Shown: positions 3,823-33,713 of the stretch, one piece after another
Layout: each line of letters begins with the position of its first letter
Numbering within the stretch: the stretch's first letter is position 1
From: a virus
Taxonomy: Duplodnaviria > Heunggongvirae > Uroviricota > Caudoviricetes
Strand: one strand, 5' to 3'
DNA length: 44,565 nucleotides
Virus record (IMG/VR): IMGVR_UViG_2639762822_000001
Program-made: the position numbers and the translations under genes
Notes under the pieces: generated by a model
The model's database searches: none
Told to the model about the DNA's origin: nothing
The model's input: the letters and a program-made list of their open reading frames with translations, nothing else

Positions 3823-4485
3823 TTACGCGTCTGGAGATTCGGTCACTTGCAAAGATGCAGTGGCCTTATGGCTTCCGTCTTCTGAGACGATTTCAATGGT
3901 TGCGACACCAGCTGCGACACCCGTTGCCAAACCTGACTGATCGATGGTTGCGAACTCTGGATTCTTCGAAGCCCAGTTCACTTTTTTATTCGATGCATTG
4001 GCTGGCAGGACATTAGCGGCCAGTCTTACGGTCGCGCCTTTCTCCACTGTGGCGGAATCCGGTTTAATGGATACCGACTCAACGGAAACAGGTTTCACGG
4101 TTAACTCAACTGTCGCTGATAGATTCGTTTCCGAATCCGTCGCGGTGATCTGCACTTTCCCTGCCGCTACGCCTGTCACCAAACCAGCGGTATTAACGGT
4201 AGCAATCGCGTTGTCGTCGCTTTTCCATGTAAATGAACCCGCACCTTCGCTCATAGTGATCGCTGCACGTAGCTGCACAGTCTTCCCTACCAAAACAGAG
4301 GGCGAAGCCGGTGTGATTGACACGGTCTGACTGAATGGAACGGCCTGAAGACAAGCGGCAAGATGACCCTGTTGACGCTCACTTAAAGGCTCGTTGGAAA
4401 TGGAATTAGTGAATCCGGCTCGGCACATGTGGCCAGTAAAATCCGAAAACGCCTCTTCCATAATTTTCATCTTTTGCTCTGGCAT
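3823..4485 (-). CDS. Capsid decoration protein with two Ig-like (Big_2) domains
   Basis: Two 'GxTVxLxA...WxSxxxxxATVxxxGLxTGVAAG' repeats; follows the capsid gene. Confidence 0.8.
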   Translation of the reverse strand: MPEQKMKIMEEAFSDFTGHMCRAGFTNSISNEPLSERQQGHLAACLQAVPFSQTVSITPASPSVLVGKTVQLRAAITMSEGAGSFTWKSDDNAIATVNTAGLVTGVAAGKVQITATDSETNLSATVELTVKPVSVESVSIKPDSATVEKGATVRLAANVLPANASNKKVNWASKNPEFATIDQSGLATGVAAGVATIEIVSEDGSHKATASLQVTESPDA

Positions 4486-5465: not shown

Positions 5466-6362
5466 TTACTTGAGTCCGATTTTCCCCAGACCGGAAGTCA
5501 ACTTATCCATTGTCGACCTGTTCTTCGGCTGGTTAACTTTATGGGTCGGTTTGCTGTTTGAACCGGCACCCTGCTTGGCTTCGCTGCGCATCAATGCGTC
5601 AGCCTCCGGATCAGCACGCAGAATGCGCTCAATCGCGGATTCGAACGGTAACGGCTTACCTTCGCCGTCAACCAGAACTGCACGTTCCTTCTGACCGGCC
5701 GGCTTGTCATAGCCAACAACGCTACCGTCTTCACCCACTTCAAAATGAGAGCCGTAGATAACGCGTGCTTTTGCCGGAGTCATCAGAACCTTTTCACGCA
5801 GGAAGGTAGAGCCGCTGAATGACGCGCCGACAGTCATTTCGACCAGCTGGGCTTTTAAGGCGGCGTTTTCACTCTCCAAAACAGAGAATTGTTCGTCACG
5901 CTGTGCCAGCTCATGCTGATGCGCTTCGATCATCTGCTTTTTGACAGCATCGAACTCGCCTCGGCGTTCCAGTTCAGCTTGCTCCGCCTCACGGCGTGCA
6001 TTTTCTGCGGCTTGTTCAGCTTCCAGAAGCTGACGAGCACGCGCCGGGTCAATGTCACCGTACTGAGCAAGCTGATCGGATAAAGAGCGCTCTTTTTCCT
6101 TGCGCTTCATATTCTCTTTCAGCAGGTCAGCACCGGCTTTCTTAGACTTACGCAGTTCGGCCAGCAACTCTTCAGGAGTCAAACCAGCTAAATCGTCGTC
6201 TTCACCCTTCGGCTGCTCTTTTTGCTCACCCTGTTTGCCTGGGTCTTGAGTACCCTGCTCGTTATCACCAGCAGGAGCACCAGCACCTGCGCCGCCACGC
6301 TCATGCGATTCGGCTACATCCATCAGGCCACGACGGGCCATAAGCATTTGCCACAGATTCAT
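5466..6362 (-). CDS. Capsid scaffolding protein
   Basis: G/E/Q-rich low-complexity N-terminus and long coiled coil, between portal and capsid genes. Confidence 0.8.
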   Translation of the reverse strand: MNLWQMLMARRGLMDVAESHERGGAGAGAPAGDNEQGTQDPGKQGEQKEQPKGEDDDLAGLTPEELLAELRKSKKAGADLLKENMKRKEKERSLSDQLAQYGDIDPARARQLLEAEQAAENARREAEQAELERRGEFDAVKKQMIEAHQHELAQRDEQFSVLESENAALKAQLVEMTVGASFSGSTFLREKVLMTPAKARVIYGSHFEVGEDGSVVGYDKPAGQKERAVLVDGEGKPLPFESAIERILRADPEADALMRSEAKQGAGSNSKPTHKVNQPKNRSTMDKLTSGLGKIGLK

Positions 6363-6383
6363 AGAAATTCCTTTTGTTACTTA

Positions 6384-7958
6384 TCACTCGGTCTCTTGAG
6401 TAGATGAGTCCCCATTCCCTCGGGGTTTATCTTGCCCGCTCTCTTGGGCTGCATCTCGATCATAAGTAAGTACTGACTTATTTTCAAGGGTGTTTAGATC
6501 ATTTTTTAGAGGAAATTTCAAGAGGTCTTTATCAAATTCCTTTTTCATCGCTTCGGAAATGTTAGGGAAGACTTTCTCGATAAGCATTTCCATCTGGTGT
6601 CGACGAACAGAATCTGGCGCCTGCAGCAATGCGAGTTTCTCAGCAACAGCAAATTCGTCAGTCAGCCCGCGAATATCGAAACTCTCCGGGTAAGCAATTA
6701 AGGAGTGGTCTTCGTCCAGTTCGACACCCATCCACTTCGCGGCCAGCATCATCATTTGGCGCTCGGCTCTTTCGAGACGTTCAGCCTTTGTCACCAGCAG
6801 ACTGTTAACTCTCTGGAAGTCGTACATTTTGGCTGCGCCTGATGAGTTATCGATACCCTGCGCGTTATCCTGCTTGGTTCGCTCTCCTGCAACACCAACG
6901 GAGTGGTAGATCTCATTAATCACGGTCTTAATCGTGGTAATGATCATCTGCGCTTGTTTTGGGTCAGGCGAAAGGTAAAACGGCTGGTTCCCGCTCTCGG
7001 AATCGTAGGTGAAAACACGCTTCGTCCCCATCTCCAGCACCTTGTCGTGATTTTCATCGCCCGGCAGTAGAGACTGAACAGGGATAGCAAGCTGGCTAAA
7101 TGTCTGATCCTGAATGATGGCGTCCAGGTTCGAGAGATAGTTAGCGACGGCCCGATCGAGATAGGCAATATCGTCAATGAGTGACGGGCTGAAATAAGGT
7201 GATTCACTTTCCCCGATGCAATCTACCGGGAATACCGGTACCGCGCCCAACTTGTGCTCACCGTAGTCCTCCAGCACGACTTTTGCCTGCCTGCGACCTG
7301 CGCCACCGGAACTCTTTTTCACCTCTTCACGGAAGAGATACCATTCATTTTGTGTCCATAGACGATAACGCTGGTATTCCTGACCAGTTGAGGTGAAAGG
7401 GTCCGTATCGTCACGCGCAATTTCTACGATCAGCGCCCACAGCATATTGCCATCTTCGTCCCAGGCCACATCAAGCAGCTGCTGCGGCGAAATCCAGTAG
7501 GCATAGGCTCGCGCCCCCTTCTGTTTCTCGTCAGCAACGGACTCAACGTCACCGTTCATTGTGCTATCGACCACAACCCAGATGCGGCCGTAAATAGACG
7601 ACTGAAGATCGATTGCCGCCATGAACGCATCAATGGAAGCATTCTGCCGTGTGGCTCGTTTCCAGAAATTGCGGATCTGCTCGGGCGCCTCTTCGATATT
7701 GCGATGAATATCCTCTTTGAAGAGATATTTGTTGATCAGGTTTACCACTTCGCGAGTGTGGTTAAAGCGATACGCTCGCTCAAGGCGCTCCTTGAACTCC
7801 TGATCACCCTCTTTGAAGTAACGAAAGATATTTTCGCTAAACCAGGCTCGCCCGCCAGCGTAAGTGCTGGCGAGAAAATCCCAATGTTCTTTTTTCTTCT
7901 CATATTCGGGGTGGCGCCGGGCCACCAGATCTTTGATTTGCTTATCAGTCAATTCCAT
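6384..7958 (-). CDS. Portal protein
   Basis: 524 aa directly after terL; 'RHPEY..WDFL..TYAGG', 'SGAAKMYDF' portal-like motifs. Confidence 0.85.
   Translation of the reverse strand: MELTDKQIKDLVARRHPEYEKKKEHWDFLASTYAGGRAWFSENIFRYFKEGDQEFKERLERAYRFNHTREVVNLINKYLFKEDIHRNIEEAPEQIRNFWKRATRQNASIDAFMAAIDLQSSIYGRIWVVVDSTMNGDVESVADEKQKGARAYAYWISPQQLLDVAWDEDGNMLWALIVEIARDDTDPFTSTGQEYQRYRLWTQNEWYLFREEVKKSSGGAGRRQAKVVLEDYGEHKLGAVPVFPVDCIGESESPYFSPSLIDDIAYLDRAVANYLSNLDAIIQDQTFSQLAIPVQSLLPGDENHDKVLEMGTKRVFTYDSESGNQPFYLSPDPKQAQMIITTIKTVINEIYHSVGVAGERTKQDNAQGIDNSSGAAKMYDFQRVNSLLVTKAERLERAERQMMMLAAKWMGVELDEDHSLIAYPESFDIRGLTDEFAVAEKLALLQAPDSVRRHQMEMLIEKVFPNISEAMKKEFDKDLLKFPLKNDLNTLENKSVLTYDRDAAQESGQDKPRGNGDSSTQETE
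6462..6481 (-). promoter_or_regulatory. Motif A inside portal 3' end, before scaffold gene
   Basis: ATAAGTAAGTACTGACTTAT; -10-like TATGAT. Confidence 0.65.
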
Positions 7959-9891: not shown

Positions 9892-9932
9892 AGATCCCTC
9901 TAAAACACGCAGAGCGCATCCTTGCGCCCTCT

Positions 9933-31877: not shown

Positions 31878-32375
31878 TCAATCACAGCAGGAGGAAGATC
31901 CGGTATCGCAGGACGCGCCGGAATCGTGTCCAGAGACATCCCATCCAGAGAAACAGGTGCTCTTTCGGGCTGGGGCATCGTCTGTGACGGTGTGATGGGA
32001 GAAATGGTTGATTCCGGCATCAGTATGCTCTGACCGGTGGGAATTGCTGCGGCTGCCAGAGAAGCCAATATCAGACCGTAGGCCATTGGTTTCAGTCGCT
32101 TTCTTTGAAAGTTTTCCATCCGAACTCTCCATGTGCTTCTGGGATTGACGCAGCACGCGAGAAACCGTGGATTCACTTTTCTTTTTAACGGCTACAGTCG
32201 CCCCCAGATGGGCAATGGCGTCAGCCTGGGCATTAGCTCGATGCTCCAGTTCAGTCACTCGCTCTTCAAGCTCCACGAGACGTGCAAAAATTCCGCCGCT
32301 TAACAAATTGGCGAAAGCCAGACGTAATGAACGAGGTCGTTTTTTGAAAGAGGTGAGGGGCGTATGACGTGCCAT
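31878..32375 (-). CDS. Hypothetical protein (coiled coil + Ser/His/Cys-rich tail)
   Basis: Likely start MARHT; ends 'HDSGASCDTGSSSCCD'. Confidence 0.6.
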   Translation of the reverse strand: MARHTPLTSFKKRPRSLRLAFANLLSGGIFARLVELEERVTELEHRANAQADAIAHLGATVAVKKKSESTVSRVLRQSQKHMESSDGKLSKKATETNGLRSDIGFSGSRSNSHRSEHTDAGINHFSHHTVTDDAPARKSTCFSGWDVSGHDSGASCDTGSSSCCD

Positions 32376-32394
32376 TGAGGATTCCATTCATTGT

Positions 32395-32497
32395 CAGAAA
32401 GAGTTGCGGCTGGCATGGCCAGCCGCCGTTTGGCGTTCCATCCTGGAACAGTGCCTACCGGCACTTCGTCATCCTGACGAATGGTAAGATAACTGAT
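32395..32497 (-). ncRNA. Candidate CsrA-binding small RNA or leader with four tandem hairpins
   Basis: Two hairpins with CAGGAUG loops, one with a GGUA loop, and a terminal 9-bp GC hairpin; motif-A site with TATTAT directly upstream. Confidence 0.45.
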
Positions 32498-32505
32498 TTA
32501 ATATA

Positions 32506-32525
32506 ATAGGTAAATACTTACTTAT
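32506..32525 (-). promoter_or_regulatory. Motif A
   Basis: ATAGGTAAATACTTACTTAT; -10-like TATTAT. Confidence 0.7.
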
Positions 32526-33126
32526 CATTTTGTGACAAAAAACCAATGTCACGCTTGTGAGGCATATCCGCTGCGGTGTGGGCCGCGATCTTCGCCAGAC
32601 GGTCACACATTTCGTTTTCGCGATGACCCGCATGGCCTTTAACCCACTTCCAGCGAACGTTGTGGCGGCTGGCGGCCGCGTCGAGACGTTTCCAGAGATC
32701 GACATTTTTGACTGGCTTCTTCTCGGACGTGATCCATCCGTTACGCTTCCAGCCTTTCATCCAGAGCGTCATGCCGTTTTTGAGATACTGGCTGTCTGAA
32801 TGCAGGATCACGTTGCAGGAGTACTTCAGACGCTCCAGCGCAATCAGGGCGCCCATCATCTCCATACGATTGTTGGTCGTGCTGTGGAAGCCCTCAGAAA
32901 GCTCACGCTCTTCACCTCGATACTGGAGAACGATGCCGTAACCGCCCGGTCCGCCCGGATTTTTGAGGCAAGAGCCATCACTGAACACTTTTACGGTTTT
33001 GAGCTGGGGATTGAACTCTACTACGGGGGTTTTGAAGCTGGTACGGGAATGGTGGTGGGTTTGCTGTCTGGCTTTGGACTTCGGCCGGCAGCCAGTTTGT
33101 TGTCGGGCTGGGGTTTTAGTTGTCAT
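32518..33126 (-). CDS. rnhA: Ribonuclease HI with ~35-aa basic N-terminal extension
   Basis: '[14 protein letters not shown]', 'TTNNRMEM', 'SDSQY', 'VKNVDLW', '[15 protein letters not shown]'; GGAG RBS. Confidence 0.95.
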
Positions 33127-33234
33127 TTTGACTCCAGAATCGCGCGCCGCGACGATTTTTTCCCTCGCGCGTGTGCGCACGCGTGTGTTTAAATTTTTAA
33201 AATTTCTTATGAAAGAAAAACTTACTTCCCAGAA

Positions 33235-33670
33235 CAGGTTTTAATAAAACCTGAACTGAACGAACGAAGTGAGTGAAGTTCACCTCGAACGAAGTGAGAG
33301 GTTGTCTTTTCAGGTAATATCTTCCCAGGGAGGTGAGTACAGATCCTCACCAGCCTGGTCGTTACATAACCTGAAAAGTTATGGCCTAAGTCTACTGCCA
33401 GCTTAGGCTTGGGAAGTTATGGATGACAGCACCCCAGAACCGAGATCTTCCCACATTCTATGAAGGGGAGCTGGGAACACAACCTCTCGAAATCCCAGAC
33501 TCGACAATCATAGAATGACCCTTATCTCTGCTCACTTTGGTTCCCCCTTCCCCAACACCTAAACGGTGCCGGTTCTACGCTGGTAGTGAGCTTTTTAAAC
33601 CTGACGCCAGTGACACAATCCCCCACCCATCAGGCCGAGCTTCCGGAGGTTCCGGAAGCATGGGGATATT
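33235..33670. ncRNA. Highly structured non-coding region (candidate ncRNA or R-loop origin)
   Basis: No ORF of 60 aa or more; at least 7 perfect helices of 6-10 bp, including long-range pairings; C-tracts on the plus strand. Confidence 0.5.
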
Positions 33671-33693
33671 AACACTGGAATCCATGGTTTAAA

Positions 33694-33713
33694 ATAGGTA
33701 AGCAATTACCTAT
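33694..33713. promoter_or_regulatory. Motif A upstream of structured region
   Basis: ATAGGTAAGCAATTACCTAT. Confidence 0.7.

Follow-up and report, generated by a model that had tools for sequence, protein, structure and literature searches.

The 44,565-nucleotide (nt) stretch of DNA analysed here, hereafter the window, is recorded as a virus of the Caudoviricetes (IMG/VR record IMGVR_UViG_2639762822_000001), and carries on its minus strand, between the RNase H gene (rnhA) and the next operon, a leader of about 104 nt that is a genuine structured RNA. The leader folds around a four-way junction, is better conserved than the coding sequences on either side of it, and displays two loops that resemble the repeat units of the small RNA CsrB. 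With some caution, we read it as the 5′ leader of an early operon whose expression may be gated by the host protein CsrA. The region shares 87.5% identity with Salmonella phage SSU5 and 99.7% with a plasmid of Salmonella enterica of 106.6 kb, which places the window within a phage-plasmid of the SSU5/pHCM2 type. The RNA family is undescribed: Rfam offers no match, none of the hundreds of records that carry the leader region annotates it, and we found no paper on it.

The initial annotation described four back-to-back hairpins (hp1 to hp4). All four inverted repeats are present on the minus strand at the positions given in Table 1 (hp2 was drawn there as 32464-32451), and the 146-nt stretch that contains them folds at -52.8 kcal/mol (z = -5.06), with none of 200 dinucleotide shuffles being equally stable. 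In a structural alignment of 30 distinct leader sequences, four of the six pairs in hp2 covary (AU/UA/CG, UA/CG, GC/AU, and CG/UA). The same stem contains 13 U-G cells that would become C-A mismatches if the other strand were read, which identifies the minus strand as the RNA strand. In hp4, the top pair covaries (CG in 20 sequences, AU in 6) above a freely variable loop. The pairing in hp1 is less regular; 78% of its cells are paired, and the outer three pairs fail in about half of the distinct sequences.

The consensus fold also contains a long-range helix, P1, which closes a four-way junction holding hp2, hp3, and hp4, both in the minimum free energy (MFE) structure of the single sequence and in the RNAalifold consensus. 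P1 is paired in 99.3% of cells, and the structure that includes it in 99.1%, compared with 35–47% in a control where the partners were slid relative to each other. Because both strands are invariant, there is no covariation for or against P1; two rare variants each break one of its pairs. The 3′ strand belongs to a pyrimidine-rich tract, AACUCUUUCUGACA, that is unchanged in 27 of the 30 distinct sequences, the variants being CUCUUUAUGAC and AGCUCUUU. The description of hp1 as a hairpin thus stands only in part: the inverted repeat is there, but its outer stem is lost in about half of the family, and P1 takes its place in the consensus fold. Two further pairings were considered and rejected. 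An outer helix, CCAUUC/GAAUGG, which is predicted to sequester the Shine-Dalgarno (SD) sequence in the present sequence, is not conserved, and an alternative CGUUC/GAACG pairing is absent from this lineage, which has CAUUC instead. A coding role for the region, in the plus-strand open reading frame (ORF) 32369-32506 or the minus-strand ORF 32300-32464, is excluded by one-base insertions and deletions in the loops.

Table 1. Features of the leader region and its surroundings (window coordinates).
Feature	Position	Strand	Remarks
RNase HI gene (rnhA)	32518-33180	minus	upstream of leader; Pfam RNase_H, E = 1.5e-45
Motif A, 20-bp palindrome ATAAGTAAGTATTTACCTAT	32506..32525	minus	presumed operator/regulator site; overlaps rnhA stop codon (32520-32518)
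Alternative sigma-70-like promoter, TTTACC-17 nt-TATCTT	32486..32514	minus	+1 predicted near 32479
TATTAT, -10-like hexamer at palindrome end	32503..32508	minus	+1 predicted near 32496; no good -35
hp1, UUCGUC-AGGAU-GACGAA	32465..32481	minus	first CAGGAUG site; only GUC/GAC conserved as local stem
hp2, 6-bp stem A-GUGCC/GGCAC-U, loop GGUA	32450..32465	minus	loop GGYNA in relatives; covariation
hp3, GUUCC-AGGAU-GGAAC	32435..32449	minus	second CAGGAUG site, loop exposed; stem invariant
hp4, 9-bp G+C-rich hairpin	32406..32426	minus	variable loop; terminator-like, flagged by terminator scan
Helix P1, GUCAGGA.GA (32478-32469) with UC.UUCUGAC (32402-32393)	32393..32478 (core)	minus	MFE and RNAalifold
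AACUCUUUCUGACA, near-invariant pyrimidine-rich 14-nt tract	32392..32405	minus	P1 3′ strand; loosely boxA-like (CUCUUU)
Ribosome site AUGGA (SD GGA 32385-32383), start ATG 32375-32373	32373..32387	minus	conserved in homologues
Downstream gene, 165 aa	31878..32375	minus	phrog_10411, E = 5e-63; Pfam, weak SlyX match only

A 321-nt query spanning the leader region retrieved 681 PLSDB plasmids from Klebsiella, Escherichia, Enterobacter, Salmonella, Citrobacter, Cronobacter, and other genera, and the region is also found in 12 phage records. The E. coli variant occurs in 206 of 5,426 complete E. coli genomes (3.8%), and all hosts seen for leader-bearing elements are Enterobacteriaceae. A protein-based search for distant relatives gave only four clusters, and one relative of the downstream gene in viral contigs. 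Among eleven relatives, the leader is 88–94% identical compared with 69–78% for the first 300 nt of the downstream gene, while the rnhA flank ranges from 62 to 94% among SSU5/pHCM2-type phage-plasmids. In the most distant relative, from Buttiauxella (L010), the corresponding values are 91% for the leader, 67–69% for the gene, and 62% for the sequence at the rnhA position; rnhA itself is absent there, and the leader still accompanies the downstream gene. That the leader is better conserved than the flanking coding sequences implies that the element is more than a chance structure.

The conservation extends to the loops. A scan of viral contigs that was anchored on hp4 and its tail, and hence unbiased towards GGA, yielded 75 loci of the family, 72 of which keep both GGA loops, whereas the loops of hp2 and hp4 drift. 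The site in hp1 reads GTCAGGATGAC at 73 loci, and the loop of hp3 is CCAGGATGG at 50, CCAAGGATGG at 16, and CCACGGATGG at 8. The three exceptions are a GGA to GGG change in hp1, an hp1 site reading GUAAGGAUGAC, and a GGA to UGA change in hp3 at the locus L071 (IMG/VR 2869154154_000004, 660-850). L071 alone has another gene in place of the downstream one; its degenerate leader copy retains the promoter, hp1, hp2, and hp4, but has lost the 3′ strand of P1 along with the hp3 GGA, and is followed after CUCUUUCUG by unrelated DNA and a different gene. A drift of the AGGAU loops over stable stems, which would have spoken against a role of the GGA motifs, is thus not what the family displays.

The resemblance of the CAGGAUG loops to CsrA sites, which the initial annotation had pointed out, holds and is sharper than was claimed. 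Apart from CAGGAUG, hp3 accepts only CAAGGAUG or CACGGAUG, so that the sole change is an extra base at the N of A(N)GGA, and, as far as can be judged from sequence, this tolerance follows the rule by which CsrA is reported to recognise A(N)GGA. CACGGAUG is the hcnA hairpin sequence bound by RsmE. The consensus obtained for CsrA by the ligand-selection method SELEX is RUACARGGAUGU, where the GGA sits in short-stemmed hairpins with loops of mostly six nucleotides (PMC7652899). CAAGGAUG matches the core of this consensus, and more generally the leader sites agree with it over CA(N)GGAUG (7–8 nt), but differ in the flanking RUA and the final U (GUC..GAC and UCC..GGA in the leader). A third GGA, which had been noted at the ribosome-binding site of the gene starting at 32375, is indeed present and overlaps the SD sequence in every homologue. 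The SD GGA and the ATGG are invariant, and the context is always A-N-GGA (AUGGA or AAGGA; 30 of 30 distinct homologues), about 5–7 nt ahead of the conserved ATG. An ATG at 32387 is in frame in this lineage only, and the annotated starts of relatives map to 32375.

Partition-function folds of nine leader variants give the GGA in hp3 a probability of being unpaired of 0.83–1.0, compared with 0.02–0.26 in most variants for the first GGA, which lies in hp1 or P1. For the SD GGA the value is 0.5–0.97 in eight of the nine variants and 0.04 in Buttiauxella. From the hp3 GGA it is 31 nt to the GGA of hp1 and about 58 nt to that of the SD sequence, and both distances fall within the 10–63 nt over which a CsrA dimer bridges two sites (PMC7652899). 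A CsrA gene (PF02599) is absent from five complete SSU5-like records, while control genomes scored; a phage-encoded CsrA was accordingly rejected, and any CsrA partner would have to be that of the host. Enterobacteriaceae carry csrA.

In the following model we infer that CsrA binds, in which direction it controls expression, where transcription starts, and which sites are bridged. A promoter embedded in a recurrent palindromic operator would drive minus-strand transcription of the leader and of the operon behind it, which comprises the phrog_10411 gene, a gene for a small membrane protein, and TciA/TerB-like genes, with the anti-repressor Ant added in SSU5. The RNA folds into the compact junction, in which hp3 permanently presents its A(N)GGAU loop, the 5′ CAGGAUG is either the local loop of hp1 or part of P1, and the third A-N-GGA is the SD sequence. 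A host CsrA dimer could dock on the hp3 loop and either bridge to the SD GGA, which P1 draws near, or to the 5′ GGA, thereby opening P1. In either case the bridging would block ribosome entry, and expression of the operon would follow host CsrA activity, i.e., growth and carbon state. A more elaborate version, which we regard as unlikely, is that CsrA at the 5′ CAGGAUG competes with P1, such that the RNA alternates between a closed junction and an open form held by CsrA and acts, in a widespread clinical family of phage-plasmids, as a sensor of host state that ties the decision between plasmid and lytic life to the Csr system. Such a switch would set the translation of the early operon with its anti-repressor (in SSU5), and perhaps the access of Rho to the freed CUCUUUCUGACA tract, and the amplified leader might soak up CsrA during lytic growth as a by-product.

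Several observations weigh against a CsrA-gated leader. Rfam gives no match that reaches threshold, and the agreement with the 12-nt SELEX consensus is confined to its CA(N)GGAUG core. In the window, CAGGATG is not enriched (6 seen, 5.3 expected), the other four copies lying within coding sequence and outside hairpins, and loosely defined hairpins with GGA in the loop are no more frequent than in shuffled sequences (92 compared with 88). No other leader in the window has a convincing pair of GGA sites, and no ‘CsrA regulon’ is visible there. Given the absence of enrichment in the single sequence, the case rests on conservation and not on counts. Since the first GGA is predicted to be paired within P1 in most variants, only one hairpin site is certainly exposed, and the third GGA would be required for the SD sequence in any case. 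CsrA would not need the stems of hp3 and hp4 or AACUCUUUCUGACA to be invariant, and their constancy indicates an additional or different constraint, such as a tight tertiary fold, another partner, or a transcriptional role.

The last point leads to a leader that functions independently of CsrA, an explanation that we consider somewhat doubtful but serious. The partner would then be a phage RNA-binding protein, RNA polymerase itself (put-type), or Nus factors acting through CUCUUU, or the RNA could be a self-acting 5′ stabiliser, and the AGGAU loops would serve as contacts for that partner or in tertiary structure. This would account for the conservation of stems, junctions, and the 14-nt tract beyond the GGA motifs, as well as for the sequestration of the 5′ end and the first GGA by P1. 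Phage promoter-proximal antitermination RNAs are known from lambda (nut, with boxA and boxB) and HK022 (put), and the leader has a similar geometry, in that its stacked hairpins have loops of 5 nt and lie between an early promoter under operator control and a terminator-like hairpin. The boxA consensus GCUCUUUAACAA stands beside a boxB hairpin in a nut-type site. In the leader only the core CUCUUU of this consensus is matched, with a better agreement in the variant CUCUUUA (L033 and L040), but the boxA-like tract has no conserved G, no 3′ AACAA, and different flanks. The loops are unlike the GNRA-type loops of boxB, no Rfam cis-regulatory or antitermination family matches even at E ≤ 10, and neither an N-like protein nor any other candidate partner was identified, although a putative tandem Sm-like protein gene, a candidate from the first reading of the sequence, is present elsewhere in the window. 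It is also difficult to see why the loop of hp3 should accept an insertion only at the N of A(N)GGA, which is best explained by recognition of the CsrA type.

The initial annotation left a choice between a CsrA sponge and a CsrA-gated leader, and proposed a discrete RNA of about 100 nt. The leader fits better, and a discrete RNA appears less likely. The 9-bp G+C-rich hairpin and its tail are in place, but hp4 would make a poor terminator, as AAC intervenes between its stem and the U-tract CUCUUUCU (32403-32396), in which no run of U exceeds three. The conserved, paired sequence does not stop at the would-be termination point but continues through the invariant CUGACA and the P1 strand (to 32392), and we therefore favour a leader over a free small RNA. 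A trans-acting sponge, i.e., an RNA of about 85 nt that ends at hp4 and titrates host CsrA in lytic growth or in the lysogen in order to reprogram host metabolism, is improbable. mRNA leaders can act as CsrA sponges, as for the Salmonella fimA leader, and the two CsrB-like units together with the terminator-like hairpin and pyrimidine tract flagged by the scan would suit such a function. The element is also multi-copy, with about 5.5 copies per cell of the LF82 phage-plasmid (PMC9928086), and would be amplified on induction. Against a sponge stand the number of sites (at most three, or two in hairpins, one of which is usually paired), the distance of only about 30 nt between hp4 and the ATG, a promoter that carries a phage operator and shows no sign of UvrY/GacA-type control, and the fact that the element accompanies the downstream gene even in L010, which lacks rnhA, and loses the hp3 GGA at L071, which lacks that gene.

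Alternatively, hp4 could be a plain attenuator or intergenic terminator that ends transcripts of the rnhA operon and the leader, with the upstream hairpins modulating folding and the GGA motifs being incidental. The G+C-rich stem of hp4 with its T-rich tail, flagged by the scan, and the lack of another terminator between rnhA and the next gene would agree with this. We nevertheless consider it quite unlikely, as it leaves the invariant identical loops, the A(N)GGA insertions, and the freely varying loops of hp2 and hp4 unexplained, and no predicted pairing competes with hp4, so that no anti-terminator is visible.

The promoter of the leader is predicted to overlap motif A. This motif is over-represented, its 12-mer core being found in 11 copies in the window compared with 1.64 expected, and alignment of these copies extends it to a 20-bp palindrome with the consensus ATAAGTAAGT/ACTTACTTAT, of which this core is the right half. 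The last TAT of the palindrome opens a TATNAT hexamer that is present at most copies, and motif A can therefore be described as an operator-like site fused to a -10 element. It is nearly invariant among homologues. The promoter scan lists ATGATA-17-TATATT, one base beyond the TATTAT at the leader. The alternative promoter has 8 of 12 consensus matches and falls under the threshold of the scan, but every homologue retains the two hexamers at a distance of exactly 17 nt, even where the spacer itself differs in sequence (Buttiauxella L010, and L042), the sole hexamer variant, TATTCT for TATCTT, retaining TA...T. The start predicted from it coincides with the onset of sequence invariance. Starts near 32496 and near 32479 are both candidates. 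The other copies of motif A in the window are at 1204, 6462, 13514, 19824, 27885, 33702, 39587, 41854, 44345, and 44353; the motif resembles the operator of one dimeric regulator set at many promoters, and the C1 operators of phage P1 are scattered over the genome in a similar way.

The product of the downstream gene has a basic N-terminus, a coiled coil, and a disordered Ser/His-rich tail. It is followed by a gene for a 62-aa membrane protein and by TerB/TciA-like genes, and in SSU5 the anti-repressor Ant lies in the same transcription unit. Strain LF82 carries Cyrano, a related phage-plasmid, and gene-level RNA-seq data from this lysogen show no more than background for the downstream gene, which suggests that the leader promoter is silent in lysogeny. 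Such silence agrees with repression through the operator and speaks against an abundant sponge in the lysogen. In the same data the small ORF CYRAN_81 (Cyrano OV696614 78657-78791; L011 2602-2736) reaches 117 compared with about 8 for its neighbours, roughly 12-fold above the prophage background. It lies inside the counterpart of another structured RNA, at 33181-33713 in the window, and this RNA of about 445 nt upstream of rnhA thus appears to be expressed in lysogeny. It was considered as the real sponge and rejected, as it is not GGA-rich.

Comparison with known RNA families gives no close counterpart. Rfam has no match at gathering threshold over the whole window, and at E ≤ 10 the locus matches none of CsrB, CsrC, RsmY/Z, TwoAYGGAY, the c4 antisense RNA of phage P1, JUMPstart/ops, or a riboswitch; ARAGORN finds no tRNA or tmRNA. 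The best CsrB score among the relatives is that of the E. coli variant (L007), in which cmscan places hp1 and hp3 on two adjacent units of CsrB (RF00018, model positions 21–63) with 16.8 bits and E = 0.2, the gathering score being 71. The repeat units of CsrB, which shares clan CL00106 with CsrC and RsmX/Y/Z, have CAGGAUG loops like those of hp1 and hp3. CsrB and CsrC have about 9–22 such sites (about 5 to 22 across the family), whereas the leader has two CAGGAUG sites and the SD GGA, with no GGA in hp2 or hp4, and CsrB is an independent gene with a strong terminator. The ops/RfaH reading of the hp2 loop (CGGUAG) was discarded, as the loop is GGYNA in relatives and there is no ops match. CAUCCUG, the complement of the conserved loops, is absent from minus-strand transcripts of the window, which leaves c4-like pairing of loop and target within the 44.5 kb unsupported.

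TwoAYGGAY (RF01731, clan CL00106) is also a small RNA with two hairpin loops of the A(Y)GGAY type and a basal helix, and a proposal exists that Csr/Rsm proteins bind its loops (bioRxiv 10.64898/2026.09.22.753630). The loops of the leader are AGGAU, AAGGAU, or ACGGAU, the last of which, in the Cronobacter lineage, is a literal AYGGAY. Unlike TwoAYGGAY, the leader has hp2 and hp4 inside the basal helix and one GGA within the helix instead of a terminal loop, and it is a single-copy element with a fixed place upstream of one gene; TwoAYGGAY, by contrast, occurs in several copies and resembles a mobile element. RF01731 gives no match in the window or in five relatives at E ≤ 10, although the same model scores 44–49 bits on control loci. 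A scan of bacterial genome contigs for the twin-hairpin pattern, useful only as a positive control, returned mostly chance matches; among the matches listed were the true CsrB of Enterovibrio and at least nine TwoAYGGAY (Aeromonadaceae and an Enterobacterales metagenome-assembled genome), and no new member of the leader family. The TwoAYGGAY loci L110, L137, L139, L142, L153, L158, and L177 come from Aeromonadaceae and that Enterobacterales genome, in which the element is multi-copy, and three loci have a JUMPstart/ops element within about 0.4–2.5 kb.

With respect to layout, a close parallel of the putative CsrA-gated leader is found among host mRNAs. Leaders of the E. coli glgC type, which CsrA represses, combine a high-affinity loop GGA upstream with a lower-affinity GGA over the SD sequence, and the leader has the same layout with a spacing in the 10–63 nt range. 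In pgaA, CsrA remodels the leader and exposes a Rho site (PMC4052769), and a comparable competition between CsrA and an RNA helix is possible for P1. The leader differs from glgC and pgaA in that it has no sequence homology to them, is borne by a phage-plasmid, and places a GGA in the closing helix of a compact four-way junction. Its conservation is also far above that of typical host CsrA leaders.

Phage-plasmids of the SSU5/pHCM2/pKpn type are common in Salmonella, Klebsiella, E. coli, Enterobacter, and Cronobacter and carry resistance genes, yet their gene control is almost unstudied, and the leader is among their best-conserved stretches. Our literature search found no paper on small RNAs, operators, or CsrA in SSU5/pHCM2, and no report linking a temperate phage-plasmid that has no csrA of its own to host CsrA; a 2025 review on small RNAs of phage origin makes no mention of CsrA. 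If the CsrA-gated leader is correct, such an element would wire its early operon to the global carbon and stationary-phase regulator of its host, a known kind of control in a new setting. If CsrA does not bind, the leader is still a new, compact, and highly constrained RNA fold.

GGA hairpins were also noted at other places. In the window, a minus-strand hairpin at 6410-6425 (CCCCG-AGGGAA-UGGGG) has GGA in its loop, lies behind another motif A site, and is followed after about 50 nt by an AAGGAA SD sequence at 6362-6371; judged from the sequence, the pair could be a second CsrA-type arrangement or chance, and conservation is uninformative because the region is 89–99% identical in relatives. 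A 7-bp hairpin at 9903-9923 (minus strand; AGGGCGC-AAGGAU-GCGCUCU) has a hexaloop identical to the SELEX-type CsrA loop. In an unrelated phage contig (L041, IMG/VR 3300042273_000134, 4100-4180; also L044), a 90-nt gap between two genes of the structural module holds the hairpins GUC-AGGAU-GAC and GCGCC-AGGAU-GGCGC, followed by CUGGAUGG and CUGGAUGA at the start codon, which amounts to four GGAUG motifs in about 70 nt.

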